Part shown: piece by piece, positions 39,235 through 64,000 of the stretch | Numbering within the stretch: position 1 is the first letter of the stretch | Layout of the letters: every line of letters begins with the position of its first letter | Program-made: the position numbers and the translations under genes | Source: an uncultured Planctomycetota bacterium | GTDB lineage: Bacteria > Planctomycetota > Planctomycetia > Isosphaerales > Isosphaeraceae | Assembly: GCA_963845755.1 (NCBI GenBank) | Contig: CAWJTV010000011.1 | Span: 1,408,001-1,472,000, forward strand | Length of the DNA stretch: 64,000 bases | Reading direction: 5' to 3' | Notes under the pieces: model-generated | Databases searched by the model: none | Told to the model about the DNA's origin: nothing | What the model saw: only the letters and a program-made list of their open reading frames with translations

Positions 39235-39240
39235 TGATCG

Positions 39241-42735: not shown

Positions 42736-42777
42736 ATTCTCCGAGAACACTCTTTGCGGCGAGGGAGCCACGCGGAA

Positions 42778-46584: not shown

Positions 46585-46808
46585 CGAATCCCGGTCGGAT
46601 GGATCCTGGCCCGCTCACCCGTCCCTCCTTCTCGGGCTTGGAGTCGTCTCGCCCGTATCGCAGAAAATGCCGTCGCGACGCCGCCCTGCAATCCGGAGGC
46701 TACACTTTGGGATTGGCAGCGATCGAGGGGCGAGGTGACCCTTGCCCCGGTCCGTCGCTCCCGAGCACCCCGTAAGTGACAAGGCCGCCGAAAGAAAGGA
46801 GCAAGTCG

Positions 46809-47142
46809 ATGGGTCGTTCTCGTCTCGGGGACTTCGCGCGTATCGCGGTCCTCCTGGTCGCCGCGCTCACGCCGGTGCCGGCCCGAGCCGGTGGGCACAA
46901 GGATCGCCACTGCGCGAACGCCCCCGGCCACGTCGATCCGGCCGCGATCCCAAGGGCCTATCCCCCCCCCGGGTTCGATCACTTCCGCGCCCGGAAATCC
47001 CTGGTGTTACGCCATCCCGATCCAGGCGGTCTACCAGTTTCCCGCCGTGATGGCGAATCAACCGGGGGCCGAAGTCGGGTGGCTCCGGGTGCATCCGGAA
47101 TACGGCCTCCTCGGTGGCCAACCCCACCTCTACCACCCCTGA
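46809..47142 (+). CDS. Small exported Pro-rich hypothetical protein; probable frameshift near 46921
   Basis: ATG after AAGGAG; signal peptide IAVLLVAALTPVPARA; plausible continuation in ORF 46891..47142 after a C homopolymer. Confidence 0.5.
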
Positions 47143-47472
47143 GGCTCGGGGGCGAGTGCGAGTGCGGCACCGATCGGGACGCTGGCCCGGCGCGCCCGCC
47201 ATCCGGATGGGCCGACAATTCCGCTCCGGGGGCCGCGCCACTCGCCCAAGGCACTCCCGGGGCGGAACCCTCACCGCCCGGGTATTGCGGCGCGCAGGAC
47301 GTGTTGGCCAATCGTCCCTCCCCACAGCCGTTGTTTTCAACCGTCCCAGCATGGGAAAGCATCCAACACCTGATGCTCCTCTTAATAAGCTTGCTCAAGT
47401 CGTGCTTTCCGCCGCTCCGATATCATCTTTGATGATTTTTCTGGTCTTAATAACCAGACGGGGTCGAAAAAC

Positions 47473-49517
47473 ATGGCGATTCTCCGTGGTCACAGGGTCG
47501 CCGTTGATGCGCGTCTCCTCTCATCACCGAGGCGTCTCCTCGCTCTCGTGGCTCTGACGGCGGTGCTGAGCCATGCGGCGCAGTGCAGGCGCCGTTCCCT
47601 CCGGCATCGCCACCGCCGTGGATTCCATCCGCGGCCAAACCGCTCGAGGCGTTGCCGGCAGGTAGCCCGGCGTCCGGGTGGCCCCACGATTCTCCGAGGA
47701 GAGCGAGATCCCGGCGAGCTTGCCCCGGGTCCCGTTGTCGGAGCCCCGACCGGCGCAAGGTCCTCGCTCCGCGGCCTCGTTCGTCGAGAGCCTCAAGGGC
47801 AACGACGCTACCTTCGATGTCCTGGTGAACCAGGCACGGATCCTCACGCTCAAGCAGGATCTCATCGCCGGGCCAGCCCGGCCGCTGATCGCCGTCGGCG
47901 ATCCGACGATCCTGGACTTCACCATCGTCAGCCCTCGCCAGCTCCGGATCAGCGGCCGGGCGATCGGCGTGACCGACTTGTCGATCACGAATGCGCAGAA
48001 CGAGACCGTCGCCTTCGAGGTCCGGGTCCTCGCCGACCTGACGCTGATCCAGGGCACGTTGCGGACGATCTTCCCGGACGCGAGCATCCACCTCAGCCAG
48101 GTCCGGGACCATATCGTGATCGAGGGCGAGGCGCGGGATCCGGCGCAGATCGCTCGGATCATTCAGACGCTTTCCGCCTACCTCGCCTCGGTCTTCGTCC
48201 AGCAAGGGCGGACGGTCGCCGTCGGGCAGACCGGGCAGATCATGCAGGCGATGCAAGCCACGGGGCCCCAGGCACCAGGCGCGGCGGCCGGCGGCATGGC
48301 GGCCGGGGCCGGGGGCATGGCGCCCGAGGCTGGCGGCCAACGCTCCGGCGCCGGGGGCGTGCCGGGACAACCGACGATCGCCGGCATGCCGGGGCCAGTC
48401 GGCCCCGGAGGTCCCGGGACCGCGTTCAACCCGCTGGCCGCGTACGCGACCTCGGCGGAGCTTTCGGGTAACAGCCTTATCGCCAACCGCGGCGTCGCAC
48501 CCCAGATCATCAACTTGATGCGAGTCGCCGGCTCGCAGCAGGTGTTGCTCAAGGTCCGCATCGCCGAGCTCAACCGGACCGCCCTGCGACGGATCGGCGC
48601 CAACTTCCTGGGCGTGGATCCCCGGACGGGGGGCATCGTCGGCTCGATCATCGGCGGGCCGACCAACTTCCAGGGGACAATCGGCCAGCCGGGCCAACTG
48701 GTCCGGGGCAAACAACTCTTCGGCTCCGCGAGCATGCTCCAGAATGGGTTGGACACGACTGTCTTCGGCATCTTCCAGGACGCCAACTTCGAGTTCGCAC
48801 TCGGCGCCCTGCGGCAGAACGGGCTGCTCAAGATCCTCGCCGAGCCCAACCTCGTGGCGCTCAACGGTCAGACCGCCAGCTTCCTGGCCGGCGGCGAGTT
48901 CCCGGTGCCCGTCCCCCAGGTCAGCGCCTCAGGCGTCGCCCCGACGATCACCGTCCGGTTCCGCGAGTTCGGCGTCCGCGTCGGCTTCGTCCCTTATATC
49001 CTCGACGGCGACGTCATCCGGCTCACGGTCGCCCCCGAGGTCAGCAACATCGACAACACGATCGCCGTCACCCTGGTCGCGGGCGGCACGCCGGTCCCCG
49101 GCCTCGATACCCGCAAGGCGCAGACGACCGTCGAACTCCGCGAGGGGCAGACCCTGGCCATCGCCGGCCTGCTGCAATTGTCGCTCAACGGCAATACCGC
49201 GCATCCCCGTCCTGGGCGACTTGCCGATCATCGGGCCGTTCTTCAGCAACACCTCCAGCCAGCGGACCGAGAAGGAGCTCGTCGTGCTGGTGACGCCGTA
49301 CCTGATCGAGCCGATGAGTCCCGGCCAGGTCCCGCCGACGCCCGGCGACGAGGTCAAGGAGCCCAACGACCTGGAGCTCTTCTTCCTCAACCGGATCGAG
49401 GCCCGCACCGGCAAGGACTTCCGCTCCACGACCGAGTGGGACGACCGCTTCGGCCTCCGCCGCCACCTGAAGCTGGAAAAGAAGTATGTCAATGGCCCGG
49501 TCGGATTCTCGGAGTGA
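47473..49517 (+). CDS. cpaC: Tad/Flp pilus secretin CpaC/RcpA; frameshifted
   Basis: Signal peptide; N-domain IAVGDPTILD..GRAIGVTDL; QQVLLKVRIAELNR; ILAEPNLVALNGQTASFLAGGEFPVP; IPVLGDLPIIGPFF..EKELVVLVTPYLI. Confidence 0.92.
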
Positions 49518-49621
49518 CGGAGATCCGTCCGGCCGCCTGTCCCGCATCGGTCTTCGATCGCCGTCACGGAGCATCGGGCGATCGTCCCGAGATCGACGAC
49601 TGACCAATGGAGGGTAAGCGA

Positions 49622-50401
49622 ATGCCTCGTGCACTCCGACGGAACCTGCTGCTCTTCGCCGGGCTGATGCTCGCCGGCGCTCAGGGTCCCGCCGCGTCGG
49701 CCCAGGAGGGCCCGACGCCTGCGGCCCCGCTGTCGGCTGCGAGCCTACCCGGCTTGGTGGCCGCGCCCGCGGCGGCTCCCCTGGTCGCGCCGGCCGCGAC
49801 GGCGTCCGGGGGATGCACCTGCGGCAATCGCCGCGGCCTGAGCCGCTGGCGGCATCACCGCGCCCACTGCAAGCGGCACCTCCAGGACCGCTTCCTGGGC
49901 TTCGCCGAGGAATTCAACGAATGGCCGCTGGGCGAGTCGGCCTACGCCCATGCCCGGAGTCAGGTGGCCAACGGCCAGGCCGCCCGGATGGTCTTCTACC
50001 ATTACGACTTCGTCGATGACACGCCGCAGCTCAATACCCGGGGCCGCGACAAGCTGGCCGCGGTCGCCGCGGCGCTCCCGACCAACTTCTTACCGATCGT
50101 GGTCGAGCGCACGCCCAGGGAGCCCGGCCTCGATGATTCCAGGAAGTCGGTCCTCCTCGCCGAATTGGGCCGCGGAGCATTCCCAGTCCCCGCCGAGCGG
50201 ATCCTCATCGGCCCCGGCATCGCCCATGGCATGACCGGGTTCGAGGCCTACTACGCCATCTATCCCGGCCAGATCTCGAACCTGTCCTCGGGCGGGGCGA
50301 TCGGGGGCGCCGGTGCCACCGGCTTCGTCGGCGGCGGCCTGGACTTCAATGCGGGGGGACTCTCCGGTGGTGCCGTCGGCGGCGGCGCCGCGGGCCGGTG
50401 A
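49622..50401 (+). CDS. Exported hypothetical protein following the secretin
   Basis: Signal peptide NLLLFAGLMLAGAQGPAASA; QVANGQAARMVFYHYDF..LNTRGRDKL; Gly-rich tail. Confidence 0.72.
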   Translation: MPRALRRNLLLFAGLMLAGAQGPAASAQEGPTPAAPLSAASLPGLVAAPAAAPLVAPAATASGGCTCGNRRGLSRWRHHRAHCKRHLQDRFLGFAEEFNEWPLGESAYAHARSQVANGQAARMVFYHYDFVDDTPQLNTRGRDKLAAVAAALPTNFLPIVVERTPREPGLDDSRKSVLLAELGRGAFPVPAERILIGPGIAHGMTGFEAYYAIYPGQISNLSSGGAIGGAGATGFVGGGLDFNAGGLSGGAVGGGAAGR

Positions 50402-50523
50402 GCCCCGATCGTTCCGCCTCCGTCGTCGTTATGTCCATCCGAGAGGTGGCCCGCAGGAGGAAGTCCACCCAGCCCATTCCGGCGGACCACACCGCAGTCA
50501 TAGCCCATGAAGGGTTTCAAGCC

Positions 50524-51435
50524 ATGACGGCCACGCGTCGAACGCAATGCCTGGGGAGAGCGCTAGCGGCTGGGGCCTTGCTCGGTCTGGTCGGTTGCCA
50601 TCAGTTCCCGTCCCCTCTCGGCAATCGAGCCGACCGGGGCCGCAATCAGGAGCCGAACGGCAGTTCGATCACGCCGGCCCAGGAGGCCGACGTGCAGATC
50701 AGCCTGGGCCGGGTGGCCGAGAAGCAGGGAGAACTGGAGCAGGCGATGGCCGCCTACCGCGCCGCCCTGGCTCGCGACGGCCGCCGCGCCGACGCCTACC
50801 TACGGATGGCGGTCCTCCACGATAAGCAAGGGAAGTTCCGGGAGTCCGCCGAGCTCTATCGCAAGGCCCTCGCCTTACGACCCGGCGACCCCGAGATCTT
50901 CTGCGACATGGGTTATAGCTTCTACCTCCAGCGCCGCTGGACGGAGTCGGAGCAGAATCTGCGCCAGGCGATCGCGGTCGATCGGGACCACCGCCGCGCC
51001 CACAACAACCTGGCCCTGCTCCTGGTCCGCAACAACCGTCTGGAGGACGCCCTGGCGGAGTTCCGCGATGGCGGCAGCGAGCCCGCCCAGGCGCACCTGA
51101 ACCTGGCCTTCGCCCTGACCATGGAGCGACGCTGGGAATCCGCCCGGGAGCACTACCAGCGCTCCCTGGCCCTCGATCCCGCCTCACAACTCGCGAAGGA
51201 CCGCCTGGGCCAGTTGAATGCCCTGGCCGCGAAGTTGGAGAATCGCCGGGACGGCACTCCACAGGACCCGCACGTGCTCGTCACCTCGGCCGACCACCCG
51301 CCGCCAGGGCGTGACGCCATGGTGAAACCGTGGGCGACCGTCGACTCGCCCGCCGGTACCACCCCACGGCTCCGGCCCGGCCCTTCGGTCGAGGCGGCGG
51401 TGGCCCCGCTCAACAGGCGAGATCCCGGGCCGTAA
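50524..51435 (+). CDS. TPR lipoprotein, TadD-like
   Basis: Lipobox GALLGLVG-C; tandem TPRs (DMGYSFYLQRRW, AHNNLALLL, AHLNLAFAL); Tad locus context. Confidence 0.82.
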   Translation: MTATRRTQCLGRALAAGALLGLVGCHQFPSPLGNRADRGRNQEPNGSSITPAQEADVQISLGRVAEKQGELEQAMAAYRAALARDGRRADAYLRMAVLHDKQGKFRESAELYRKALALRPGDPEIFCDMGYSFYLQRRWTESEQNLRQAIAVDRDHRRAHNNLALLLVRNNRLEDALAEFRDGGSEPAQAHLNLAFALTMERRWESAREHYQRSLALDPASQLAKDRLGQLNALAAKLENRRDGTPQDPHVLVTSADHPPPGRDAMVKPWATVDSPAGTTPRLRPGPSVEAAVAPLNRRDPGP

Positions 51436-51826: not shown

Positions 51827-52624
51827 ATGATCAACGGCAAGACGGTGATCGTCGTCCTCCCGGCCTATAACGCCGCGAAGACGCTGGAGAGGACCATCTC
51901 GGATGTCCCGCCCGGGATCGTGGACGAGTTCCTGCTCGTCGACGACGCCTCGCGCGACGATACGGTCGAGCGGGCGCGCCGGCTCGGCATCCCCTCCATC
52001 GTCCACTCGCAGAACCAGGGCTACGGGGGCAACCAGAAGACCTGCTACACCGAGGCGCTGCGCCGGGGTGCCGACGTCGTGGTAATGCTCCATCCGGACT
52101 ATCAGTACAGCCCCAAGCTGATCGGGTCGATGGCCTGGCAGGTCGCCTCGGGCGAATATGATGTCGTGCTCGGCTCGCGTGTCCTCGGCGCCGGGGCCCT
52201 CAAGGGCGGGATGCCGCTGTACAAGTACGTGGCGAACCGTTTCCTGACCGCGGTCGAGAATATCCTGCTGGGCATCAAGCTCTCGGAGTTCCACACCGGC
52301 TACCGGGCCTTCAGCCGCCGAGTGCTGGAAACCCTCCCCCTGCACGAGAACTCCGACGACTTCGTCTTCGACAACCAGATACTCGCCCAGGCGGTCGCCT
52401 TCGGCTTCGCGATCGGCGAGATTTCCTGCCCGACCAGGTATTTCCCAGAGGCCTCCTCGATCAACTTCCGCCGCTCCGTGACCTATGGCCTCGGCGTGCT
52501 CGGGACGGCGTTCCGGTTCCGGCTCCATCGCTGGAGGCTCCTCCGATGTGCGCTCTTTGAACAGGAGGGCCGACGCCTCGGAAACTCCCTGCCTGCCCAT
52601 GCACCGGTCGCAGGTCGGGCCTAG
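51827..52624 (+). CDS. GT2 glycosyltransferase, DPM1/polyprenyl-phosphate-sugar-synthase-like
   Basis: [64 protein letters not shown]. Confidence 0.92.
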
Positions 52625-52696
52625 GGGCTGATCCTCGAGCGACGTACCGGTAGACGTTCCAGGCTCCCCACCCGTACATGGCGTGAAAAGCCGTCG

Positions 52697-54304
52697 ATGG
52701 AAAAGCGAATCCGAACCCGGGTACTCCGAGGGTTGAGTGGTTCTTCAATGCGAGCGACTCTGGTTGACATCCCGATGCGGGCGACGGATGCAAGGGCTTC
52801 CCGCGAGGAAGACCCGCGCTCCCTCTCGACGTCAAGCCGCTTCTCGGACACAGCCCTCCGGCTCGTCATCCTGATCGCGCTTTATGCGATCCCGGCAATC
52901 ATGGTCATGAAGCCGGTCCAGGACCTCGATATCTGGTGGCACCTCCGCACGGGTCAATGGATCGTCGAGCACGCCATGGTCCCGGCGACCGATCCCTTCT
53001 CGACCTTCGGCCAGGACAGGCCCTGGGTTGCCTATAGCTGGCTCTTCGAGGTCCTGGTCTACGGCCTGTACGAGCGGCTCGACCTCAGCGGCATCATCCT
53101 CTATCGTGCCGCCCTGGGATTCGCCGTCGCCGTCGCCGTGCACCGTTTCATCGCCCGGCGCGAGCCGAGGTTCGTCGTCGCATCCGGCCTGACCGGTCTG
53201 GCTTTCATGACGTGCGCCTGCCTGATGAACGAGCGGCCCTGGCTTTTCACGATCCTCTTCTTCACGCTGACGCTCGACTCGGTGCTCGACCTCCGGGCGG
53301 GTCGGAGCGGGCCCTCGATCTGGCTCTTGCCGATCTCATATGCGCTCTGGGCAAACCTGCATATCCAGTTCATCTACGGGCTGTTCATCTTGGGGCTGGC
53401 CTGTGCCGCCCCCTGCATCGATCGGCTCCTTGGCCGCGGCCGGCCGGGGGCGCACGCCGATACGATCGGCTCGCGCGACTGGTGGCAACTCGTGGCCCTC
53501 ACGGTCGCCTGCCTTGCGGCGACACTTCTGAATCCCTATCACGTCCGGCTATATGCCGTCGTCGTCGAGTACGCGATCCAACCCGCCGCCTTTCGCCTGG
53601 TCAGCGAGCACCGGGCCATGGACTTCCGCGGACCGGCGGATTGGGCCGTGCTGGCGATGGCCGGCTGGGCTACCTTCGCCCTGGGTTGGCGACGTCGGCT
53701 GCCGGCGTTCGAGTTCCTCCTGCTCGCCTCATCCGCTTACTTCTCCTTTCACACCAAGCGCGATCTCTGGTTCGTCGTGCTGGCGTCGCTGGCGATCGTA
53801 ACGGGCGAGGGCTGCCGGCCCGGCTGGGTGATGGGCAGTTTCGCGCCGACTCGTCGGCGATCGCTGGCCGTCGCCGTCGGGGTTGTTCTCGTGCTCGCCG
53901 CGATCGGTTGGGGGCGCGGGCTCTCTCCAAGTCGCCTCGCGCAGGCGGTCGAGGAGAAGTTTCCGGCCAGTGCCGCTTCGTTCGTCGCGGAGCAGCACCT
54001 TAAAGGGCCTCTGTACAACCATTTCGACTGGGGCGGCTATCTGATCTGGCGACTTCCCCAGCTCCCGGTCGCGATGGATGGGCGCACGAATCTGCACGGA
54101 GACGAGCGACTCCTGCGGTCCTGCAAGACCTGGGCGGGCGAGCGAGGCTGGGACTCCGATCCCGAGCTCCGGGCCGCCGGCGTCGTGATCGCGAGCACCG
54201 AGTCGCCGTTGTGTTCCCTCCTGCGGCTCGCCGGCCGCTTCCGGGTGGCCTACGAGGACCCGCATGCCGTGGTCTTCATCCGGCGTCAACCGGCCGGGAT
54301 CTAA
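52697..54304 (+). CDS. Multi-TM GT-C-type membrane protein; start uncertain
   Basis: DLDIWWHLRTGQWI..DPFS..W..YSWLFE, ERP, LWANLH, LLNPY, then a soluble C-terminal domain LYNHFDWGGYLIW..MDGR. Confidence 0.75.
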   Translation: MEKRIRTRVLRGLSGSSMRATLVDIPMRATDARASREEDPRSLSTSSRFSDTALRLVILIALYAIPAIMVMKPVQDLDIWWHLRTGQWIVEHAMVPATDPFSTFGQDRPWVAYSWLFEVLVYGLYERLDLSGIILYRAALGFAVAVAVHRFIARREPRFVVASGLTGLAFMTCACLMNERPWLFTILFFTLTLDSVLDLRAGRSGPSIWLLPISYALWANLHIQFIYGLFILGLACAAPCIDRLLGRGRPGAHADTIGSRDWWQLVALTVACLAATLLNPYHVRLYAVVVEYAIQPAAFRLVSEHRAMDFRGPADWAVLAMAGWATFALGWRRRLPAFEFLLLASSAYFSFHTKRDLWFVVLASLAIVTGEGCRPGWVMGSFAPTRRRSLAVAVGVVLVLAAIGWGRGLSPSRLAQAVEEKFPASAASFVAEQHLKGPLYNHFDWGGYLIWRLPQLPVAMDGRTNLHGDERLLRSCKTWAGERGWDSDPELRAAGVVIASTESPLCSLLRLAGRFRVAYEDPHAVVFIRRQPAGI

Positions 54305-54308
54305 TACA

Positions 54309-55643
54309 ATGATTACATTAATAATTTTAGTATCTAAATATATATCAATGTCTATTGGATTGGCGGTCCTGCTGCGCGCCAGGATCAAGCCGTTCCACCT
54401 CTGGTCGGTGATCGTCGCAACCCTCGCGATCTTCCTGATCCACCTATATGCCATGTTCCCCTTGGAGTATTTCGGGTTCGACTGCTCGATCTTCTGGAGG
54501 GCCGGTCGTGACGTCTGGGCCGGGCTGGACCCCTACGCCGCGGGTCGCTTCGGCCAGCATCCTCTCCTCAATCCACCGAGCGCCCTCCCCCTGTTCGCCC
54601 TGTTCGCCCTCCCGCCCTACCGCGTCTGCCTCGCCCTGTGGACCGTGGCGAACATCCTGGCGAGCCTGACGCTGGTGGTCCTGGCACAATATACGCTGAA
54701 GCTCCAGGCGCGCATCGATGGTCGTACCGACCCGACGGGCGCGGAGGCGTGGAGCCTCCCGCCCGCGACCCTCGCGGGATTGTCGATCTGCTTGACCTTC
54801 TCCGATTCTTCGCTGATGGGCTTCTATCTGGGCCAACTCAGCGTCTTCGTGGCCGTGATGCTGTTCGCGGCGCTGGTGGCCCAGGGAAAGGGAAGGCCCG
54901 TCTGGGCCGGTGTCTGCCTCTCTCTAGCCACGGTCAAGGTCGGGACGATGCTCCCCTTCCTGCTGCTCTTTCTCCGCAAGGCCGATCGCTGGACCTGGGT
55001 CACTTTGACTGTGCTCATCCTCGGGTTTTGTTCTCTCACCGGTCGAACGAACGAACTGCCGGGGCGGATCGCAACAATCGTGGATCGCATTGGGGAGTTC
55101 TCGTCGCCGGGGCAAGTCAACGACTACTCCTTTGAGGGCCCCCGGAACGAGAGCATCATCGGTCTCGAGCCGCTGTTCTATCGATTGGGACTCCGGGGCC
55201 GCGCGAGCATCAGGAATGCCCAATACATCGCGCTGCTGATGCTCGGGGCGTGGGTCGCTTGCTCCGTCGTCCGGGGCGACACGTCCCGGCCGGCCGCATG
55301 CGCTCTGATCGCCCTCTACTCGATCCTTTTCCTTTACCACAGGGACTACGATTCGGTAATCCTGGCGATGCCCCTGGTCTACGGGGCCTGCCGGGTGCGG
55401 GTGGCTCCCGACCACGGGCATCGGCCTTCCATCACGATCGGCCTGCTGGTGATCGCGGTCCTCTATCTGAATGCGTTCCTGCTCAGGCCCTTGGCGAATT
55501 GGACCTTGGAGTGGGGAGGCTGGGGCCGATTCGTGCAGGCGACGGTGCTGCCCTATGCCACCTGGATGATTCTCACTGCCATGCTCGTCCTGGCCCTCGG
55601 GACGACGCGCGGCCGGCGGGATATCTCGCCCCAATCGCCGTAA
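54309..55643 (+). CDS. GT87/DUF2029 glycosyltransferase
   Basis: DCSIFWRAG..GLDPY..LLNPP, LGQLS, LATVK, NESI, YHRDYD; many TM segments. Confidence 0.85.
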   Translation: MITLIILVSKYISMSIGLAVLLRARIKPFHLWSVIVATLAIFLIHLYAMFPLEYFGFDCSIFWRAGRDVWAGLDPYAAGRFGQHPLLNPPSALPLFALFALPPYRVCLALWTVANILASLTLVVLAQYTLKLQARIDGRTDPTGAEAWSLPPATLAGLSICLTFSDSSLMGFYLGQLSVFVAVMLFAALVAQGKGRPVWAGVCLSLATVKVGTMLPFLLLFLRKADRWTWVTLTVLILGFCSLTGRTNELPGRIATIVDRIGEFSSPGQVNDYSFEGPRNESIIGLEPLFYRLGLRGRASIRNAQYIALLMLGAWVACSVVRGDTSRPAACALIALYSILFLYHRDYDSVILAMPLVYGACRVRVAPDHGHRPSITIGLLVIAVLYLNAFLLRPLANWTLEWGGWGRFVQATVLPYATWMILTAMLVLALGTTRGRRDISPQSP

Positions 55644-55705
55644 GGGTGGGGCCGCCATCCTGAGTCCTGGCTCCCCCGAGCGGACTGAGGCCGCGATTCT
55701 TCCCG

Positions 55706-57150
55706 ATGTACTGGCTCGATCAGGAGTGGATTGGAACCGTGGACCAGTGTCAGCCCGAGGAAATAAATCATCATTTTGACCCCGAGGCCGGTCGCCCGCC
55801 CGGGCCGGGCCCGACGCGCGCCGCCCCGCACCAGGGGCCCAGGGCTGCGCGTTGCTCGAGGATGGACTGGCTCGGGCCGGGCCTCGCCCTGATCGCGGCC
55901 TCCATCATGGGCCCCCTCTATCTTACATCCCTGAGGCCACCGACCGGCCGCATCGTCAACTTCTACCAGGAGTGGGCCTCGGCGCCAATCACCTTCAGGG
56001 CGTGCCCGTCTACGCCAATCACCGGGTGACGATTCCCCGCTATCTGGGCCTCGAGATCTCGAGACCGCAAGACCTGACGGTCGAGGTGAACGCGCACCCG
56101 CCGACCTCCGTCCTGCTGGCGCTCCCTTTCGCCGCATTCCGCTACCAGGATGCCGTCCTGGCCTGGAACCTCACTTCGTTCGGCATGCTCGGGGCGAGCC
56201 TGTACCTGATCTGGCGCGGCCTGCGGATTCCGTTTTCAGCCCGGCGGTTATTCCTTTTGATCGCATCGCTGTTGGTGTGCTCGCCCCTGATCCTGCAATT
56301 CTTCTTCGCGCAACTGAACCTGGTTATCCTCCTGCTCTTGACGGGCACCTGGGCCGCGGACCGGTCGGGGAGGCCGATGCTCGCAGGGGCCTTGCTGGGG
56401 ACCGCCGCAGCCATCAAGATCTTCCCGGGATTCGTTTTCATTTACTTCCTCCTGAGGGGAGAATGGAAGGCCCTGATCGCGGGGGCGCTGGCCGTGACCA
56501 TGCTCACCGGCCTCACCGCGGCCGTCCTTGGCTTCGAGTCGTATCGTTGTTACTTCGATGACGTCCTCCGGCGCGTGGCGGGATTCCGCGGCGGATGGCC
56601 CAATGCCTCCCTCGTGGGATTCTGGGTCAAGATGTTCGACCCCCCGTTGAGCGAGCTGCAAGTTGAGCCGCTCTGGCGCAGCCCGGCGATCGCGCGGATC
56701 GGGATCGTGGCGTCCTGCGCGCCGGTCCTGATCGCACTGGCATCGATCGTGCGCCGGGCGGCGACGCGGGATCACCTGGACCTCGCGTTCGGATCGACAT
56801 TGACGGCCATGCTCCTGGTCTCGCCGATCACCTGGGACCATTATCTGCTCCTGCTGCCACTTCCCATCGCCGCGACCTGGATTCATCTCCCTCGGTCCAC
56901 CTCCGCGCGAGCCCTTTTCGCGGTCATCCTCGTCGCTTTCTGGTCCTCGCCGTCGATCATCCAGCATCTCTTGATCCCCGGGGGTAAATCGCACGGCATC
57001 GCTCATCCTCTGCAGACGGTCACCCTGCTCTCGTATCAATGTTATGCACTGATTGCGCTGTTCGGCCTTGGCGTAGCGGTCATGTTCGGGGGGGATTCGG
57101 TCGGACGGCGGATCGCGGGGAGTGTATCGAGTGCGACAACAGTGGATTGA
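55706..57150 (+). CDS. GT87/DUF2029 glycosyltransferase; frameshift near 55990
   Basis: NFYQEWASA..GVPVY..NAHPPTSVLL, AQLN, AIKIFP, NASL, SPITWDHY. Confidence 0.85.
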
Positions 57151-57161
57151 AGAATGTGTTC

Positions 57162-58503
57162 ATGGGTACGGGATATCGCCCTGGGCGGATCGGGTTCGAT
57201 CCTTCGCCGATCGTCGCCTGGAGCGCGACAAGGTGCGTTTCGTCTGTTTGGCTGTGCTGGCGATGAGCCTCGTGCTCGCCGCCGTTTCCTTCCTCACCCC
57301 CGACGGGACTCACACGATCTTCGGTCCTGCTCGGGGATTCGACTTTGCGGGTTTCTACATCGCGGGCCGGATCCTCAACGCAGGGCCGTCGCCGCGCCTC
57401 TATGACCTCGACCTCCAGGATCGAGTCTTCCATGAGCTCCTGCCCGGCTTGCCGCCGGAGACGAAGCTGCCCTATGTCTATCCGCCCTTCTTCTCCCTGC
57501 TGTTGCGCATCCCTGCGCTGATGCCGTATGCATGGGCCTGCCTGACCTGGATGCTGCTTTCGGCCGGCCTCTACCTGAGGGGGCTGGCCTTGACCTGGCG
57601 CGGGGTCGAGGCCATTCCCACGCGAGAGCGATCGACCGCGCTACTCCTGGCCCTCTCGTTCCAGCCGTTCGTGGAGTGCTGGCTTTCCGGACAGGCGTCA
57701 ACGGTCGGCTTCGTCGCGATGGCCCTGGCGCTGCACTGCGAAGCGCACGGGAGGCCGTTCGGCGCCGGGCTCTGCCTGGCACTCTGCCTGTACAAGCCGC
57801 CGCTCCTCGTCCTGGTCATTCCCATGCTGGTCGTCGCCCGGAGGTCGCGTGTCCTGGGTGGATTCGCCGCGGGGGGCATGGCTCTGGCGGTGGTCTCCGT
57901 GCTCGCGGTTGGCTCGCGTGGCTGCGTGGCCTACGTCCATCACATTACGGCGTTCTCGCGGCTCATGAGGAGCCCGACCACGGAGTTCCCCAACTGGAAA
58001 TTCATCGATCTCTACCATTTCCTCGGATCGATGTTCGGTGGCCATGGTCTCCTTGGATTATCCGCGTTGGTCATGGCGGCCCTCACGGTCTTGCCATTCT
58101 TGATTTGCTCGTGGTGGTGCTCGACCGGTACGGTCCCGACCGACGACTGTTGACCTGGTCCGCGACACTGACCTGGACGTTGGTCTTGAATGTCTATATC
58201 GGCGTCTACGACGCCATCCTCATCGTCCCTGGGCTGGTGATCACCACGGACGCACACTGGCGGCGCGACCGGACGACCGCGATGACTTCAGTCCACGCCT
58301 TCAGATTCCTCCTGGCGCTGCTCTTCGTGGTGCCTTGGATCTCGCAACACCTCGCACGCTCGCTGGGATTCCAGCCCTTTACGCTGGTGCTGATGGGATT
58401 GGGGGCCTACCAGCTCGTTCTCGCCGGGCGCGACGTCGCCGGAGAGGAGATGGATAGCCGGCGACGTTTCCGCGATGCGACAGCGTTGGGTGTGATTCCA
58501 TGA
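57162..58503 (+). CDS. GT87/DUF2029 glycosyltransferase; frame breaks near 57170 and 58120
   Basis: GFDFAGFYIAG..LYD..PYVYPPFF, SGQ, LYKP, YIGVYD (ORFs 57122..58153 and 57532..58503). Confidence 0.85.
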
Positions 58504-58594
58504 CTCGAGACCAAGGAATCTGGGGTTGGTCCCTGCAGACGACGAACGAATCGAGGCTTTCTGGGTCGAACTCGAGAGAGGATTAACGACGGTG

Positions 58595-59854
58595 ATGAGA
58601 CGAGATGGCAGTGCGAACCTCCGTCCCTGGATCTGCCTGGTGGGCATTACGCTCCTGACGACGTTATGCGTCCAGGGCCTCCTCGCGATCGCGCCCTGGG
58701 AGAAGCTGGTCCCCGACTTCATCTGCTACTGGGCGGCCGGGAAGCTCGTCGCCTCGGGTCAGAGCCCCTACGATGAGGCGCTTCAGGCCCGGATCCAGCA
58801 CGAGTGCGGCTGGGACAAGGCAACGGATGGGCTGGGCCGGTTCGATTTCCTCCCTTACTATTACCCCCCGTGGTTCGCGGCATTCTGTGCGCTGCTGATC
58901 CCGCTCGGCTACCAGGGCGCGAAGATCGCGTGGTTCGCCCTGAACCTGGAGCTGCTGCTAACATCGGGCTATCTGCTCCGGGACGCGGTCCCCGGCCTGC
59001 CACGGTCGGTGCCGCTGGTCGCGGTCCCGGTGTTCATCCTGTCGGTGATCTCGCTGTTCGTCGGCCAGACCTCGATCCCGATCCTCTTCTTCGCCGCGCT
59101 GGGGTGGCGGCTGCTGGAGGGGGGGAACGACCGACCGGCGGGGGCCGCGCTAGCCTGCCTGACGACCAAGCCGCAGTTGACCGTCTTCCTCGTCCTGGCG
59201 CTGCTGCTCTGGGCCGCGAGGCGGCGGCGTTGGGGGGTCGTGCAGGGGTTCGCGCTGACCCTGGCCGTGCTGGGCCTGGCCGGTGCCCTGATCGTGCCGG
59301 CCTGGCCGATCGAGATGCTGCGGGCCGGCGCGCATACGCCCCCGCCGACGGTCTACTTCCCGTGGATCGGCACCACCTGGTACTTGATCCTCAGGACGCT
59401 CGGCCTCCGGTCATGGAGCCTGTGGCTGCCATACCTGGTCGTGGCAGTCCCGTTCCTGGTGGTGGTGGTCCGGGCGTCGCTCGACCGGTCAAGGCCGCTG
59501 GAAGACATCATGGCCCTGGGGTTACTTGCGCCGTCCCTCATCGCGCCCTACGGCCGCCACTACGACTTCTCCGTCCTGCTGATTCCGCTATTCGTCATGA
59601 TGGGCCGGCGGCTCTCGGAGGTCGCCGGGACCGCCCTCCTCGTCACCCTCGTGGTCCTGCCCTACCTCCATTTTGGGGCCCTCATGAAGTTCAGGCAGAG
59701 GTATCCGAGCACCGTGCGCCTCTTCCCGGAGTTCACTTTCTTCTGGATTCCCTTGCTCTTGACGCTGATCTGGCTTGCGACGGAGGTCTGGTCCGGACGC
59801 AGCCGCCGGGCGGCGCTCGCGGCGACAGGGGTCGTCGGAGCCGCCGACGCTTGA
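58595..59854 (+). CDS. GT87/DUF2029 glycosyltransferase
   Basis: PDFICYWAAG..GQSPY..PYYYPPWF, VGQTS, TTKPQ, PYGRHYD. Confidence 0.87.
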   Translation: MRRDGSANLRPWICLVGITLLTTLCVQGLLAIAPWEKLVPDFICYWAAGKLVASGQSPYDEALQARIQHECGWDKATDGLGRFDFLPYYYPPWFAAFCALLIPLGYQGAKIAWFALNLELLLTSGYLLRDAVPGLPRSVPLVAVPVFILSVISLFVGQTSIPILFFAALGWRLLEGGNDRPAGAALACLTTKPQLTVFLVLALLLWAARRRRWGVVQGFALTLAVLGLAGALIVPAWPIEMLRAGAHTPPPTVYFPWIGTTWYLILRTLGLRSWSLWLPYLVVAVPFLVVVVRASLDRSRPLEDIMALGLLAPSLIAPYGRHYDFSVLLIPLFVMMGRRLSEVAGTALLVTLVVLPYLHFGALMKFRQRYPSTVRLFPEFTFFWIPLLLTLIWLATEVWSGRSRRAALAATGVVGAADA

Positions 59855-59904
59855 ACTGTCCCCGGCCTTGCCCTGACCGAAACCTGACCGCGGAGTCGGC
59901 CGCC

Positions 59905-61110
59905 ATGACCCGGAATCACTTTCTCCTGTCGCTGACGTTCCTCACGACCGCCGTCCATGCTCAGATCTTCCTGGCGACCGCGCAGTACCTGATCTTCTTC
60001 GGGAGGAATGACATCGCGGCCGTCTCGTGGTCGCTCAGCTTCTATTACGACAACGCCTCGAAGGCCATGGCGGGCATGATCCCGTACCGGGATTTCCCCT
60101 TCGAATACCCGGTCCTCTCATTCCCGCTCTTCCTGCTCCCCCGTCTCCTGGTATCGGACCTGGACGGTTACAAAGCCGCCTTCGTGGTGGAGATGCTGCT
60201 CTTCGACGCCGCAGCGATCTACCTGATCGCGCGCCAGGTGAGCGAGAGCGAGGGGATGGAGCAGGTCCCGTGGCGCCTCGGCTGGTACACGCTGTATTGT
60301 GCCATCCTCAGCCCGCTGGTGATCGGCCGGTTCGAGCTGGCCCCGATGGTGCTGGCCTTCGCGGCCGCGCGGTGGTGGTACGCGGGCCGGAGTCCCCTCG
60401 GCGGGATGACCGCCGGCCTGGGGGCGCTCACGAAAGTCTTCCCCGGGGTGGTCGCCGCTCCGGCGCTGGTCTGGGAGCTATCGCGGCTGCGGACGTCTTG
60501 GCCGCGCGGCATGGAGGCTTTCTTCGCGACCATGGCCGTCGGGCTGGCCGCCTGGTTCGCCCTGAGCGGCCGCGGCGTGCTCGATTCGCTGGGATACCAC
60601 GCCCGGCGCGGCCTGGAAGTGGAATCGCTCTACGGGGGCGCACTCTTCCTCTGGGGGACCGCAACGGGGACCGTGGTCCCCTGGGTCTTCGACTACAAGG
60701 CGTATCACGTCGGGCCGGCATGGGGGGCGTGGCTGGCCCCGATGGCCTTCCCCATCCAGGTCGCAACACTGCTCCTGGTCATGGTGCAGTTCCGGCGGTC
60801 GGGCATGACCGAAGGGATGCGCTATTCGGCGGCCGCCGTGCTCGCCTTCATCATCACCGGCAAGGTGTTATCGCCCCAGTACCTGATCTGGCTCTTCCCG
60901 TTCCTGGTGGTCCTCGATGGCCGGATTGGCCGCCTCGCCCGCCAGATATTCCTGCTCGCCTGCATCACGACGGCGATGCTCTATCCGGGGCCCGGGTTCG
61001 TCATGGTGCTCGACCACCAGGCTGGCGCCATCCTGCTCTTGAATCTCCGGAATGGGCTCCTGATCTGGTTGCTAGGAGTGCTTTCTGTCGGCTTGACGGC
61101 GAAACAGTAA
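59905..61110 (+). CDS. GT87-related GT-C glycosyltransferase
   Basis: YYDNA..GMIPYRDFPFEYP, GRFELAP, TKVFP, RGLEVES, KVLSPQYLIWL. Confidence 0.83.
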   Translation: MTRNHFLLSLTFLTTAVHAQIFLATAQYLIFFGRNDIAAVSWSLSFYYDNASKAMAGMIPYRDFPFEYPVLSFPLFLLPRLLVSDLDGYKAAFVVEMLLFDAAAIYLIARQVSESEGMEQVPWRLGWYTLYCAILSPLVIGRFELAPMVLAFAAARWWYAGRSPLGGMTAGLGALTKVFPGVVAAPALVWELSRLRTSWPRGMEAFFATMAVGLAAWFALSGRGVLDSLGYHARRGLEVESLYGGALFLWGTATGTVVPWVFDYKAYHVGPAWGAWLAPMAFPIQVATLLLVMVQFRRSGMTEGMRYSAAAVLAFIITGKVLSPQYLIWLFPFLVVLDGRIGRLARQIFLLACITTAMLYPGPGFVMVLDHQAGAILLLNLRNGLLIWLLGVLSVGLTAKQ

Positions 61111-61706
61111 TGAATTTTGAATTATTTTATATATTTTCAATTTAGCCATCGCCACTGATCCATTGCCGCCTGCCATAGAGGCTCATGGGGCCGCTCCCCG
61201 ATCGTCGTCGACCGCCACCGTGGATGGCTACAGGGCTGACGATCCAGCGGACAGCCTACCGACACGCTGTTCCTACGAGGGCTCCGAGTAGATCCTGTCC
61301 GCCGTTTCATGCGGCCGGCCGAAGTCGGCTCATCGGGATCCTCGCGGACGTCCCGGCTCCGACGCCGGCGGGTCGGGACCTGCGCCCGGAGGCCGGTAGG
61401 CTACCGGATATGCCTTCGCGTCTCAATCTCGCGGGGTCGCGGTGTTGGTCACAGACTGCAGTGGTCCCGCTCGGCCCTCGATGGGCTTACACCTGATTGA
61501 CGAGATTCTGAGAGCTTACACTCAGGCGCCACGATAGGTTTACACTCGGACCGTGTCCTGTGCCGTCCGAGGCGGTAAGGGTGAGCTATTCGAAACTGTG
61601 CCCCCAAAGGGCTCGCGTCCTAACTAATGCTCTTGAAACAAGTTGCGCTTCGATGCCCTGGCCAGGAGCGTTCTTCATGGATTACCGAGGTGGCGCAACG
61701 AAGAGT

Positions 61707-61724
61707 TCGGCACAGCTCGTGCTT
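61707..61724 (+). promoter_or_regulatory. Sigma-54 (-24/-12) promoter upstream of the flp pilins
   Basis: tcGGCACagctcgtGCtt gives GG-N10-GC (GG 61709-61710, GC 61721-61722) about 125 bp before flp1. A sigma-54 activator is encoded in the same locus. Confidence 0.65.
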
Positions 61725-61847
61725 AATCATCATCACGTATAAGACATGCGGTCTAGAATCCGACGGAAGCGACCGGTCGAGGGCGACCGGGACCCGTTCG
61801 CATCGGAGGGCCGCAATTCTTTTTCTACCTCTACGAGAGGAATCTCC

Positions 61848-62018
61848 ATGACGAAGCTCTGCACCGCCGCCCGGAAGTTCGTCCGCGATGAGGAGGGCGC
61901 CTCGCTGGCCGAGTACGGCCTGCTCCTGGCCCTGATCGCCGTCGTCTGCCTCGCCGGCATGACAACTCTCGGAACGAAGATCAACGCGATGTTCAACCAG
62001 GTGGCCTCCACCATCTGA
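61848..62018 (+). CDS. flp: Flp family type IVb/c pilin 1
   Basis: MTKLCTAARKFVRDEEG/ASLAEYGLLLALIAVV; 56 aa; RBS GAGG. Confidence 0.95.
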   Translation: MTKLCTAARKFVRDEEGASLAEYGLLLALIAVVCLAGMTTLGTKINAMFNQVASTI

Positions 62019-62131
62019 CCCCAGCGCGGGTCTCACCGGGGTCCTCGCCCCCTCCCCTGTGAAAGTCCCACCCTGCCGAACCGGGGGCTTCGACACACAC
62101 GACTCCATCTTTCACCCAGAGAGGAAGACCC

Positions 62132-62302
62132 ATGACGAAACTCTACGCCGCCGCCCGGAAGTTCGTCCGCGATGAGGAGGGCGCCTCGCTGGCCGAGTAC
62201 GGCCTGCTCCTGGCCCTGATCGCCGTCGTCTGCCTCGCCGGCATGACCGCCCTCGGCACGCAGATCAACGCCATGTTCAACCAGGTGTCCAGCACAATCT
62301 GA
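62132..62302 (+). CDS. flp: Flp family pilin 2 (not in the ORF track)
   Basis: MTKLYAAARKFVRDEEG/ASLAEYGLLLALIAVVCLAGMTALGTQINAMFNQVSSTI; 56 aa; RBS GAGGA. Confidence 0.95.
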   Translation: MTKLYAAARKFVRDEEGASLAEYGLLLALIAVVCLAGMTALGTQINAMFNQVSSTI

Positions 62303-62454
62303 CTGCTGGCGAGTGGCCTGGGCCGCAATCACGCTTTGCGAGTTCGGCAAGGGAGACGACGAGTTCCCTGGGCCGGCAGAACGAAAATCAATGACCCGAC
62401 GCCAGGTGGTTTCGTTCGAGCCGTTCATACCCTTTTCGACAACGAGGAACGGCC

Positions 62455-62625
62455 GTGAATCGGCTCATCGAGGCCGCCAGGCATTTCGGTCGGGACGAGG
62501 GAGGTGTTTCGATCGTTGAATACGCCCTCATGTTCGCCTTGATCACGATCGTCTGCATCGTGGTGATTGGCGCGTTGGGGGCGAAGGTCAACGAGTTCTT
62601 CAGTTCATTCTCCGCGACCATCTGA
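62455..62625 (+). CDS. flp: Flp family pilin 3, divergent (not in the ORF track)
   Basis: GTG start; MNRLIEAARHFGRDEGG/VSIVEYALMFALITIVCIVVIGALGAKVNEFFSSFSATI; RBS GAGGA. Confidence 0.9.
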   Translation: MNRLIEAARHFGRDEGGVSIVEYALMFALITIVCIVVIGALGAKVNEFFSSFSATI

Positions 62626-62933: not shown

Positions 62934-63485
62934 GTGCCTGGTCCCGCGGACGTCCCGATAGCCATCGCACTGACCGCCACGCTGATCGCGGCCATCACCG
63001 ATGTCTGGAAGTTCAAGGTCTACAACCTCCTGACCCTGCCGCTGCTCGCGGTCGGTCTCGTCTATCACGCGATGCGGGCAGACCTCGCCAGCAGCCTCGT
63101 CGGCGTCCTGTTCGGGTTCGGTGCCCTAATCGCCCTCCACGTGATCGGCGGAATGGGGGCCGGCGACGTCAAGCTGATGGCCGCGCTGGGAGCCTGGTTG
63201 GGGATGCCGTTGACCTTCCACGTGTTCATCGCCAGCTCGCTGGCTGCGGGCGCCTATGCCGTGGTCCTGATGGTGGTGACCGGGAAAGTGGGCGAGACGT
63301 TCCTGAACCTGCAGGTTCTCTGGATGCGCCTGGTTTGCATCGGCCGCTACTTGGGGGCCGACGACCGGGTCGAGAAGGAGGTGCGCCGGGCCGACCGCCG
63401 CCGGCGGATCATCCCTTTCGCCGCCATGGTGCTGGTCGGGATCGTGAGTACGCTGCTGTGGTCCGGCAGCAACCCGATGCCCTGA
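62934..63485 (+). CDS. cpaA: Prepilin peptidase CpaA/TadV (A24)
   Basis: AAITDVWKFKVYNLLT, GGMGAGDVKL, IPFA; RBS AAGGAG. Confidence 0.92.
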   Translation: MPGPADVPIAIALTATLIAAITDVWKFKVYNLLTLPLLAVGLVYHAMRADLASSLVGVLFGFGALIALHVIGGMGAGDVKLMAALGAWLGMPLTFHVFIASSLAAGAYAVVLMVVTGKVGETFLNLQVLWMRLVCIGRYLGADDRVEKEVRRADRRRRIIPFAAMVLVGIVSTLLWSGSNPMP

Positions 63486-63584
63486 CCGCGAGCCGCGCGG
63501 TCGCCCGCCGGGGAAAGCCCGGGCCCGGTCAGACTGATCTCGACGTTGTCCTCCTCAGCTATCCATCCCATCGGGAGTAGACTT

Positions 63585-64000
63585 ATGAGTCCGCGTACGC
63601 TGATCGTGGCAATGCTGGCGCTATTCTTCGGCGGAACGGCCGCTGTCGGGGTCAATTCGCTGATCAAGTCCCCGCCGAAAGGGGATATGGTCCCGGTCGT
63701 GGTGGCTGCCGCGGACATCGCACGCGGAGGTACGATTACCAGCGAGCTGCTCAAGACGCGGGACTTCCCCAGGGAGCTAGTGTCCCCAGGGGCGATCATG
63801 AAGATCGAGGACGCGATCGACCGGACAGTCGCGATCCCGCTGATGCGGGACGACGCGATCCTGGAGAACAAGCTGGCCACCAAGGGGGCCGGGCGCGGGA
63901 TGGCCGCGCTGATCCCGAAGGGGATGCGGGCCTTCACGATCACGACCACGCTGGCGTCGGGCGTGGCTGGCTTCATCCTGCCCGGCAACAGGGTGGACGT
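63585..64000 (+). CDS. cpaB: Flp pilus assembly protein CpaB/RcpC; runs off the window
   Basis: MSPRTLIVAMLALFFGG, SAF domain VVVAAADIARG, IPKGMRAFTI..SGVAGFILPGNRVD. Confidence 0.93.
   Translation, partial: MSPRTLIVAMLALFFGGTAAVGVNSLIKSPPKGDMVPVVVAAADIARGGTITSELLKTRDFPRELVSPGAIMKIEDAIDRTVAIPLMRDDAILENKLATKGAGRGMAALIPKGMRAFTITTTLASGVAGFILPGNRVD

Follow-up and report, generated by a model that had tools for sequence, protein, structure and literature searches.

What is a run of glycosyltransferase genes doing in the middle of a pilus gene cluster? The question is raised by a 64,000-nucleotide stretch of DNA from an uncultured Planctomycetota bacterium (the window; C11:1408001-1472000 of the source genome, which comprises 14.27 Mb in 49 contigs with roughly 65% G+C). 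Here a GT2 gene, a gene for a 535-residue protein of no sequence family and five GT87 genes precede the pilin genes of a Tad/Flp (type IVc) pilus. Structure prediction indicates that the 535-residue protein, hereafter the orphan GT-C, is a GT-C glycosyltransferase with an architecture closest to that of oligosaccharyltransferases (OSTs), and its homologues recur beside the major pilin gene flp in Planctomycetota, Nitrospirota and Acidobacteriota. The analysis partly supports a view of the locus as a variation on a known theme, pilin glycosylation by a pilin-adjacent GT-C, with a family lacking any Pfam or NCBIfam match at its centre.

The orphan GT-C has no Pfam match at E <= 10 and no NCBIfam match at E <= 0.1, and a profile search of the PDB returned no useful sequence match and no OST chain. 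More than 2,000 homologues were found at E <= 1e-5; among the best 120, none carries a precomputed Pfam domain and nearly all are named hypothetical. An alignment of 33 homologues contains 48 invariant columns, including D76 and D78, which form a D-x-D directly after the first transmembrane (TM) helix. A second invariant motif, D-W-G-G/S-Y, lies about 37 residues past the last TM helix (F-D-W-G-G-Y-L-I-W at 443-451 in the present protein). A D-x-D in the first external loop and a WWDYG in the C-terminal domain are the motifs of OSTs; D76 and D78 are the predicted catalytic residues of the orphan GT-C.

The AlphaFold2 model (predicted local distance difference test score, pLDDT, 88.1; predicted template modelling score, pTM, 0.85) consists of about 11 TM helices and a periplasmic alpha/beta C-terminal domain. 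Foldseek returned 29 matches at E <= 0.001, all of them GT-C proteins, with yeast STT3 at the top (9e-9). A re-check with VIA-align gave Z 20.2 for yeast STT3 (421 residues, root-mean-square deviation, rmsd, 4.7 Å) and 20.1 for human STT3A, followed by AglB (16.1), PglB (15.2), DPY19 (15.1), Pmt4 (13.8) and ArnT (13.7). A Foldseek-independent search of 48,161 chains yielded STT3B (18.6), AglB (15.5), DPY19 (14.9) and PglB (14.6). The STT3 match spans residues 44-533, and residues 417-531 alone match the isolated C-terminal domains of AglB (AglB-S2; Z 8.9, rmsd 3.0 Å) and PglB (Z 8.2) as well as two more OST fragments (Z 5.6 and 5.3). The GT87 structure PimE matches at Z 10.5 over the membrane part only, and ALG3, ALG12 and ALG9 match the GT-C core at Z 9.6-12. 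In an Atlas search the closest clusters were unnamed, and the closest named ones, PMT_2, Dpy19 and STT3 (score 0.92), are leads only.

The orphan GT-C is not a sequence member of the STT3/AglB/PglB family (GT66), and the STT3 model PF02516 has no match in the whole genome at E <= 0.01. Its predicted likeness to GT66 lies in the membrane fold with the C-terminal domain and perhaps in the D-x-D after TM1. The differences are that OSTs have 13 TM helices, compared with about 11 here; that they carry WWDYG where the orphan GT-C has D-W-G-G-Y; that their acceptor sequon N-x-S/T does not occur consistently in the Flp pilins; and that the neighbouring GT2, unlike the case of OSTs, points to a monophosphate-linked monosaccharide as donor.

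The locus and its counterparts in other genomes

From 42.4 kb on, all relevant genes of the window are co-oriented on the + strand. The locus comprises the following features (loop 1, the first periplasmic loop):

42418-44634, +, hybrid histidine kinase/response regulator at the head of the locus
45028-46584, +, sigma-54-dependent activator (bacterial enhancer-binding protein; PF00158 2.6e-61, HTH_8)
46776-47432, +, 218-residue open reading frame (ORF) of no family
47678-49603, +, CpaC/RcpA secretin (PF00263 4.9e-26, PF13629 5.5e-12)
49607-50401, +, 264-residue protein of no family with a signal-peptide-like N-terminus
50398-51435, +, TPR protein, TadD-like by position (TPR_1 7.7e-26 and related families)
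51827-52624, +, GT2 from its ATG, with an alternative TTG start at 51656 (PF00535 8.6e-18)
52697-54304, +, orphan GT-C, 535 residues, no sequence family
54264-55643, +, GT87 no. 1, start perhaps near 54306 (PF09594 2.3e-18; loop-1 Asp present)
55862-57150, +, GT87 no. 2, in ORF 55852-57150 with its 5' part in ORF 55706-56029 (PF09594 1.9e-30)
57122-58503, +, GT87 no. 3, frameshifted, Pfam match in ORF 57122-58153 (PF09594 1.2e-22)
58526-59854, +, GT87 no. 4 (PF09594 1.7e-9; loop-1 Asp present)
59905-61110, +, GT87 no. 5 (PF09594 1.6e-5, marginal)
61848-62018, +, pilin gene flp1
62132-62302, +, pilin gene flp2
62455-62625, +, pilin gene flp3, GTG start
62934-63485, +, CpaA/TadV prepilin peptidase (PF01478 4.7e-18)
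63546-64000, +, 5' part of cpaB/rcpC (328 residues in the genome)

Past the window end follow tadZ, cpaF, tadB, tadC, tadE, a tadG-like gene, a 270-residue ORF and a Ser/Thr kinase gene. Taking as components Flp with a G/A-x-x-x-E-Y processing motif, CpaA/TadV, CpaB/RcpC, CpaC/RcpA, TadZ, CpaF/TadA, TadB, TadC and pseudopilins, the Tad/Flp set is complete in one co-oriented locus that runs from window position 47678 to C11:1479913. Some 390 nt precede the ATG of the GT2 gene, and the gaps within the array are about 72, 1, 218, -29, 22 and 50 nt. An earlier note on this DNA had placed a GT2 gene and six tandem, mutually divergent GT-C genes at 51827..62625, between the secretin/TadD-like genes and flp-cpaA-cpaB. 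Pfam matches and coordinates bear out this arrangement, the limits being exactly the GT2 ATG and the flp3 stop, and the divergence is such that most GT87 pairs are undetectable by BLASTP. Five of the six proteins match the GT87 model; the sixth, which the note called a 'WWH/GGY' GT-C, has no sequence family and is assigned to GT-C by its predicted fold only.

We compared 40 relatives, including G001 of the same genus. An orthologue of the CpaF of this locus (77-79% identity) occurs only in G015, G022 and G024, and the remaining relatives, G001 among them, have only a CpaF of the 60%-identical kind, which corresponds to the second Tad locus of the source genome on contig C35. By these comparisons the Tad locus of the window is an accessory type. 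In G024 the order is activator, orphan GT-C (56% identity), three flp genes, cpaA, cpaB, tadZ, cpaF and onward, and the locus has no GT2 gene, no GT87 gene and no cpaC. In G022 two flp genes are directly preceded by a GT87 gene and an orphan-family gene of more remote kinship, and the contig of G015 stops 1.5 kb upstream of flp. The earlier note had named an array lying away from tad genes in related genomes as evidence against its reading; the relatives gave no such case, the orphan family standing beside flp in both G022 and G024. Among the relatives searched, parts of the seven-gene layout turned up but never the complete arrangement. The second Tad locus (C35 at about 33000-40300; CpaF 60% identical) is of a type common in the family and has no GT-C gene nearby; its cpaF lies in three frames and its tadC in two, from erosion or assembly indels.

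Beyond the phylum, a scan of one genome per species yielded 80 loci with orphan GT-C homologues, nine of which have clear tad genes beside the homologue (five in Nitrospirota, four in Acidobacteriota). In a metagenome scan 16 of 80 loci are tad-linked (some 13 once apparent duplicates are merged), another 14 can be assessed and lack tad genes, and 50 are too short. The chance expectation is about 1% for a random gene to lie within 10 kb of a Tad locus; this estimate takes 14 Mb of genome with two such loci, each of about 13 kb. In a tree of 76 sequences, built by a quick LG+G4 search with support from the Shimodaira-Hasegawa-like approximate likelihood-ratio test (SH-aLRT) only, the window protein falls in a 10-row clade of Planctomycetota and Nitrospirota (SH-aLRT 98), in which tad genes accompany six of the seven loci that can be assessed. 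On the tree the tad label changes six times, with at least four changes forced by well-supported branches, and none of 500 shuffles gave so low a number.

The usual gene order is activator, an oppositely oriented TPR gene, orphan GT-C, a gap of 450-600 nt, flp, cpaA, cpaB and cpaC. Matches to the sigma-54 activator adjoin the orphan GT-C homologue at L009-L011, L013, L028, L034, G024, L092, L093, L113, L139 and L140. Counterparts of the hybrid histidine kinase lie near orphan GT-C or Tad genes in G024, L013, L028 and L116. Other arrangements bring in the remaining enzymes. The acidobacterial locus L021 reads tadC, GT87, a second GT87 and orphan GT-C; L097 holds the orphan GT-C, a GT2 40% identical to that of the window and a GT87 like no. 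3; at L102-L104 the orphan GT-C and a GT2 are followed by cpaF, tadB and tadC; L095 holds cpaB, cpaA and a GT2 gene divergent from the orphan GT-C; and L044 has flp on one side of the orphan GT-C and tadE/tadG on the other. Eight contigs appear to carry homologues of both GT87 no. 5 and the orphan GT-C, and nine a GT87 no. 5 homologue with a CpaF orthologue, two contigs being common to all three; this sharing was read from equal contig sizes, a proxy that says nothing of gene order, and the size 32767 may be a ceiling value. Judged from gene neighbourhoods, the adjacency to flp across phyla is genuine comparative evidence for a role linked to the pilus. In the databases the nearest proteins are labelled Gemmataceae for the orphan GT-C and Isosphaeraceae for CpaF and GT87 no. 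5.

Proposed donor supply and the GT87 enzymes

The three best NCBIfam models for the GT2 protein are PpgS (3.2e-17), AglJ (7.6e-17) and a dolichyl-phosphate hexose transferase (8.3e-13), and its best PDB match is the dolichyl-phosphate mannose (Dol-P-Man) synthase of Pyrococcus furiosus (5mlz, 8.2e-8). The scores are far under the equivalog cut-offs (62.7 against 370 bits for PpgS, 61.6 against 325 for AglJ). The protein is a candidate polyprenyl-phosphate sugar synthase of the DPM1/PpgS/AglJ kind, a relative and not an equivalog. The proposal in the earlier note that it makes a lipid-linked monosaccharide holds as far as the nearest relatives go, which are polyprenyl-phosphate sugar synthases, and falls short at the equivalog cut-offs.

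Fusions and neighbours were surveyed among GT2 homologues. From the best 150 of 22,749 matches 24 long homologues (at least 392 residues) were picked, which divide as follows:

GT87 fused to GT2, 2 (P0389, P0393)
GT2 with a methyltransferase, 12
GT2 with another added domain, 3
GT2 domain only, 7

GT2 homologues adjoin orphan GT-C homologues at L095, L097, L102-L104 and L121. On contig C22 of the source genome (L172, C22:124000-143999) a 56%-identical GT2 paralogue (6501-7364, +) diverges from a PMT_2 GT-C gene (4463-6175, -). This module further includes a GT2 gene (1404-2240, -), a 43%-identical paralogue of GT87 no. 2 about 6.5 kb on, and a DUF1559 gene split into 7550-8143 and 8158-8706. 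Fusions, adjacency and the paralogue beside PMT_2 tie this GT2 type to GT-C enzymes. The methyltransferase fused to the GT2 homologues is of class I (P0367, P0377, P0392, P0396, P0402, P0403, P0443, P0464, P0469, P0463, P0446 and P0428), and at two Nitrospirota Tad loci (L009 7914-9903; L010 7353-9900) methyltransferase genes, with a GT2 gene in L010, lie directly upstream of the orphan GT-C. These methyltransferase links hint at a methylated sugar.

The pairing of a GT2 synthase with a periplasmic GT-C recalls the three-component systems of GtrA, a GtrB-type GT2 and a type-specific GT-C (PMC11127046). The present locus differs in that it has no gene for a GtrA flippase, its GT2 lacks the C-terminal TM helices of the GtrB type, it encodes six GT-C enzymes where those systems have one, and the likely acceptor would be a protein.

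All five remaining array genes pass the gathering score of PF09594, no. 5 marginally (25.2 against 25 bits); most of the best 120 homologues of no. 5 carry a precomputed PF09594 domain. The genome has ten PF09594 matches, of which the array accounts for five. The best paralogue pairs are 24-42% identical over partial stretches by BLASTP. Recent tandem duplication as the source of the five genes is ruled out by this divergence, and from their sequences they are old, unlike paralogues. GT87 no. 3 (57122-58503) is nearer to its counterpart at L021 (8781-10118; 44% identical, E 3e-69, in one intact frame), which adjoins the orphan GT-C homologue there, than to any compared GT87 paralogue of its own genome; this suggests that a pair of GT87 and orphan GT-C genes may move between phyla.

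Characterised GT87 enzymes such as PimE use polyprenyl-phosphate sugar donors and lipid acceptors, and an Asp in the first periplasmic loop is the catalytic residue of PimE. This Asp is kept in GT87 nos. 1, 3 and 4, and none is evident in no. 5, in an alignment of divergent paralogues that is uncertain. GT87 no. 2 matches the NCBIfam model PRK13375 (a 'mannosyltransferase' equivalog, presumably the PimE model) at 3e-9, below the cut-off; a search of the PDB with its sequence gave nothing useful. The array shares PF09594, a multi-TM build and, by that alignment, the loop-1 Asp of nos. 1, 3 and 4 with PimE and the actinobacterial GT87 enzymes. It differs from PimE in that nos. 2 and 5 appear to be without the Asp, and in setting: PimE-type acceptors are phosphatidylinositol mannosides and lipoglycans, not proteins, whereas this array stands in a planctomycete pilus locus.

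Candidate acceptors and competing readings

Our preferred reading, to which we give a little less than an even chance, is that the orphan GT-C glycosylates Flp or another prepilin-like Tad protein in the periplasm, using a polyprenyl-phosphate sugar made by the GT2, and that the GT87 enzymes elaborate the glycan. The cytoplasmic DPM1/PpgS-like GT2 would put a monosaccharide onto polyprenyl phosphate, and a flippase encoded outside the locus would move the lipid-linked sugar to the periplasmic face. There the orphan GT-C would hand the sugar to Flp, or to some other prepilin-like protein of the Tad system, while the inner membrane still anchors it, and the GT87 enzymes would extend or branch the glycan. 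We infer this donor, acceptor, linkage, order of steps and set of activities; the gene content and order, the families, the predicted fold and the synteny are as described above.

There are precedents. Flp1 of Aggregatibacter actinomycetemcomitans has long been reported to be glycosylated (PMC6182317). Archaeal Epd pilins are N-glycosylated via AglB (PMC3875500), and Tad systems have been inferred to descend from an archaeal Epd-like system (PMC6668835). If that ancestry holds, an OST-like enzyme at Tad loci is suggestive. In group IV Pseudomonas aeruginosa TfpW, a GT-C encoded beside pilA, serves glycosylation of the type IVa pilin (bioRxiv 10.1101/2020.04.19.049825). That preprint describes a GT-C gene adjoining the major pilin gene, a periplasmic loop 1 and a large periplasmic C-terminus, all of which resemble the present case, and O-glycosylation of the pilin with D-arabinofuranose from a lipid-phosphate-linked monosaccharide made by dedicated cytoplasmic enzymes. 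TfpW differs in serving a type IVa pilus, compared with a Tad/Flp pilus here, and in being one enzyme that reportedly both polymerises and transfers, compared with an OST-like GT-C and five GT87 enzymes. TfpW is the nearest working analogue of the orphan GT-C; STT3, AglB and PglB are its nearest structural relatives.

Complex prediction for orphan GT-C residues 44-535 with Flp gave a median score of 0.52 (runs 0.01, 0.52 and 0.57), compared with 0.00 for the best of three controls; the partner had a pLDDT of at least 52 and the runs agreed in at least 70% of contacts. The pass mark is reached by 116 of 157 solved complexes and by 2 of 215 mismatches, and scores up to 0.60 take in 18 of the 157 together with both passing mismatches; for a pass of this kind, errors outnumber correct calls unless the pair was already a likely one. 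The prediction lends weak support to a complex of the two proteins.

Several observations weigh against the preferred reading. As to linkage, the greater part of the orphan family is found without tad genes: of 74 near-full-length genome loci, 46 are flanked by 5 kb or more on either side and show no tad gene, among them those of a 35-row Acidobacteriaceae clade in which none of 31 assessable loci is tad-linked. The Tad locus of G001 has no orphan GT-C gene within 40 kb, and the gene is missing from that genome. The family is rare in the phylum: a survey of 400 further genomes gave one orthologue (E <= 1e-60), on an 8-kb contig that shows no tad gene and whose flank is too short for a judgement. 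In the window itself 730 nt separate GT87 no. 5 from flp1, which likely has a separate promoter. As to the enzymes, the second-best PDB matches of the GT2 are the soluble GpgS enzymes, and the protein has no predicted TM segment. The locus has no flippase gene, and the one GtrA-type match (PF04138) of the genome lies 213 kb away. The known GT87 acceptors are glycolipids. On C22 the GT2, PMT_2 and GT87 genes occur without Tad genes, and this module's gene content shows that such GT2/GT-C modules probably work outside pilus loci as well. As to the acceptor, N-x-S/T occurs in only one of the 12 Flp pilins of GT-C-linked loci, that of G022; the note's statement that the window pilins have no sequon agrees with this. 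The Flp of the GT-C-less Tad locus of G001 also ends Ser/Thr-rich. The Tad pilus of Caulobacter crescentus has no extra density in cryo-EM (PMC10710030).

Two of the GT87 genes add to these points. For no. 2, the frame of 55706-56029 encodes TM1 with loop 1 and that of 55852-57150 the remainder, with a switch near 55984 (the frames were traced by tblastn with a paralogue), and Asn stands in place of the conserved Asp. In no. 3 a frameshift lies between 58114 and 58150, as judged against the intact L021 counterpart. Nos. 2 and 3 may be broken genes. Since other genes of the assembly are split too, CpaF into three frames and TadC into two on C35 and the DUF1559 gene on C22, assembly indels are at least as likely as decay. 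Of four public metagenome contigs compared (peat, soil and wetland; word shares 0.05-0.14), none bridges either frameshift, and 57907-58277 is almost uncovered; no RNA data set was listed with matching sequence.

The 12 Flp pilins of GT-C-linked loci have the usual leader and hydrophobic helix and short tails rich in Ser, Thr, Ala and Pro. Ser/Thr-rich or C-terminal-Ser tails were considered as a mark of GT-C-linked loci and are ruled out by G001: the tails do not discriminate, because the Flp of that GT-C-less locus ends alike. The suggestion in the earlier note that the Ser/Thr-rich C-termini carry the glycan therefore loses its specificity; the O-linkage it proposes, and its order of priming by the orphan GT-C before extension by the GT87 enzymes, are likewise conjectural.

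The strongest competitor, which we consider unlikely but well worth weighing, holds that the module makes or decorates a non-pilin envelope glycoconjugate (a glycolipid, lipoglycan, lipopolysaccharide or adhesive polysaccharide) that is co-regulated with or needed for Tad function, such as adhesion, envelope passage or phage evasion, and that the pilin is unglycosylated. PimE and ArnT, both among the fold matches (Z 10.5 and 13.7), act on lipids, the C22 module stands away from Tad genes, the majority of the orphan family is not tad-linked, and the array lies behind cpaC and the TPR gene as well as 730 nt from flp. The top fold matches, C-terminal domain included, are however protein oligosaccharyltransferases, in three phyla the orphan GT-C usually has flp as its immediate downstream neighbour in the same orientation, and no polysaccharide export, polymerase or sugar-nucleotide gene was found in the window.

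A bolder form of the preferred reading would make the orphan family a compact bacterial OST-like enzyme dedicated to Tad pilins, the counterpart of archaeal AglB for pili that descend in bacteria from the Epd kind, which together with the GT2 and the five GT87 enzymes would form a bacterial analogue of luminal N-glycosylation acting at a non-sequon site. We think this distinctly unlikely. In eukaryotes the same three kinds of enzyme (DPM1, ALG3/9/12 and STT3) serve N-glycosylation in the lumen, and here they are encoded together; the parallel is an analogy only, since neither a flippase nor the cytoplasmic part of the assembly turned up here and the GT87 enzymes are not ALG orthologues. On the bolder reading the family would add a third system for glycosylating pilins to PglL/TfpO and TfpW, and it would be a new family of GT-C enzymes acting on proteins.

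Akin to this is an en-bloc route, in which a lipid-linked oligosaccharide is lengthened on the periplasmic side by the GT87 enzymes, with sugars from the polyprenyl-phosphate donor made by the GT2, and the STT3-like GT-C transfers the finished glycan to a non-sequon site of the pilin. ALG3, ALG9 and ALG12 extend a lipid-linked oligosaccharide in this manner, using Dol-P-Man, and all three match the GT-C core, while STT3, AglB and PglB match with the C-terminal domain; the gene content, a DPM1-like GT2, several mannosyltransferase-type GT-C enzymes and an OST-like enzyme, would also suit. We regard the route as quite improbable. The locus has neither an initiating phosphoglycosyltransferase nor a flippase, the STT3 model is unmatched in the genome, D-W-G-G-Y stands where OSTs have WWDYG, loci with the orphan GT-C only (G024, Nitrospirota) have no extension enzymes nearby, and the GT2 pairing fits a monosaccharide donor at least equally.

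There is a slender chance that the acceptor is another Tad component, be it a TadE/TadF/TadG pseudopilin, CpaB, or the secretin or its lipoprotein partners. The orphan GT-C of L044 lies between flp and tadE/tadG, the array of the window follows cpaC, the gene for the 264-residue protein and the TPR gene, and the Flp tails are undistinctive; against this, flp itself is the commonest neighbour, and the complex prediction gave weak support with Flp, the sole partner tried. Finally, that there is no functional link at all, the array being a mobile, partly decaying GT-C island in an accessory Tad locus, as the two frameshifted GT87 genes, the seven-gene layout unique among the relatives searched and the patchy distribution of the locus might suggest, is hardly credible given that the orphan GT-C is tad-linked in at least six separate tree lineages (at least four of them forced by well-supported branches), in 16 of 80 metagenome loci and in the assessable relatives of this Tad type (G022, G024), and that the other split genes (CpaF and TadC on C35, DUF1559 on C22) point to indel errors over decay.

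In many bacteria adhesion and the formation of biofilms are driven by Tad/Flp pili. A full-text literature search, largely outside subscription journals, found no description of a Flp glycosyltransferase or of a GT-C in a Tad locus, in line with the remark in the earlier note that no described Tad system is known to have this layout. The orphan GT-C is a concrete but unproven candidate for the Flp-glycosylating enzyme. Its assets are the predicted catalytic residues D76 and D78, a high-confidence model, recurrent adjacency to flp in three phyla and a plausible partner for making the donor. The orphan family is also a large set of GT-C proteins unmatched in Pfam and NCBIfam; that its nearest structural relatives are OSTs is relevant to the diversification of the machineries that glycosylate proteins. 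Should the acceptor be something other than the pilin, the module would nonetheless indicate a glycoconjugate connected with Tad function.

The flp promoter region and the rest of the window

A sigma-54-type element resembling the -24/-12 pattern (GG-N10-GC) lies at 61708-61723 on the + strand, 125 nt 5' of flp1. Its counterpart in G024 is a weak GG-N10-GC element 129 nt upstream of flp. At seven loci of other phyla the form is TGGCC-N-C-N-GCTTTGCA, 162-187 nt upstream of flp, agreeing with the consensus at 9 of 11 positions; the elements of L010 and L113 fit less well, with 8 of 11 positions at 150-174 nt. All nine are better than those of the window and G024. Elements of this type keep a fixed distance from flp, at the following positions:

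L006, 1571-1586
L009, 11810
L012, 2428
L066, 971
L140, 11976
L153, 2048
L167, 1906
L171, 3394

In control tiles of the window a score of 9 occurs in 4 of 139 and a score of at least 8 in 24 of 139. The sigma-54 pattern matches 50 times across the window with 49 expected, so the single element is not above chance. A sigma-54 element ahead of flp fits these loci because a sigma-54 activator is encoded beside them. Scans for sigma-70 promoters and terminators were not above shuffles. A short, very A+T-rich stretch at 61100-61150, right after the stop of GT87 no. 5, opens the 730-nt gap before flp1.

The 264-residue and 218-residue ORFs have no Pfam or NCBIfam family match. Nothing glycan-related was found at 1-42 kb of the window. 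Upstream of the pilus locus there are many ORFs without a family, together with a CHAT-domain fragment covering only the C-terminal 120 positions of the profile (4237-4995), an 843-residue Ser/Thr kinase (8772-11300) and a protein with the N2/M domain of GTPase-associated protein 1 (GAP1; 21534-23138).

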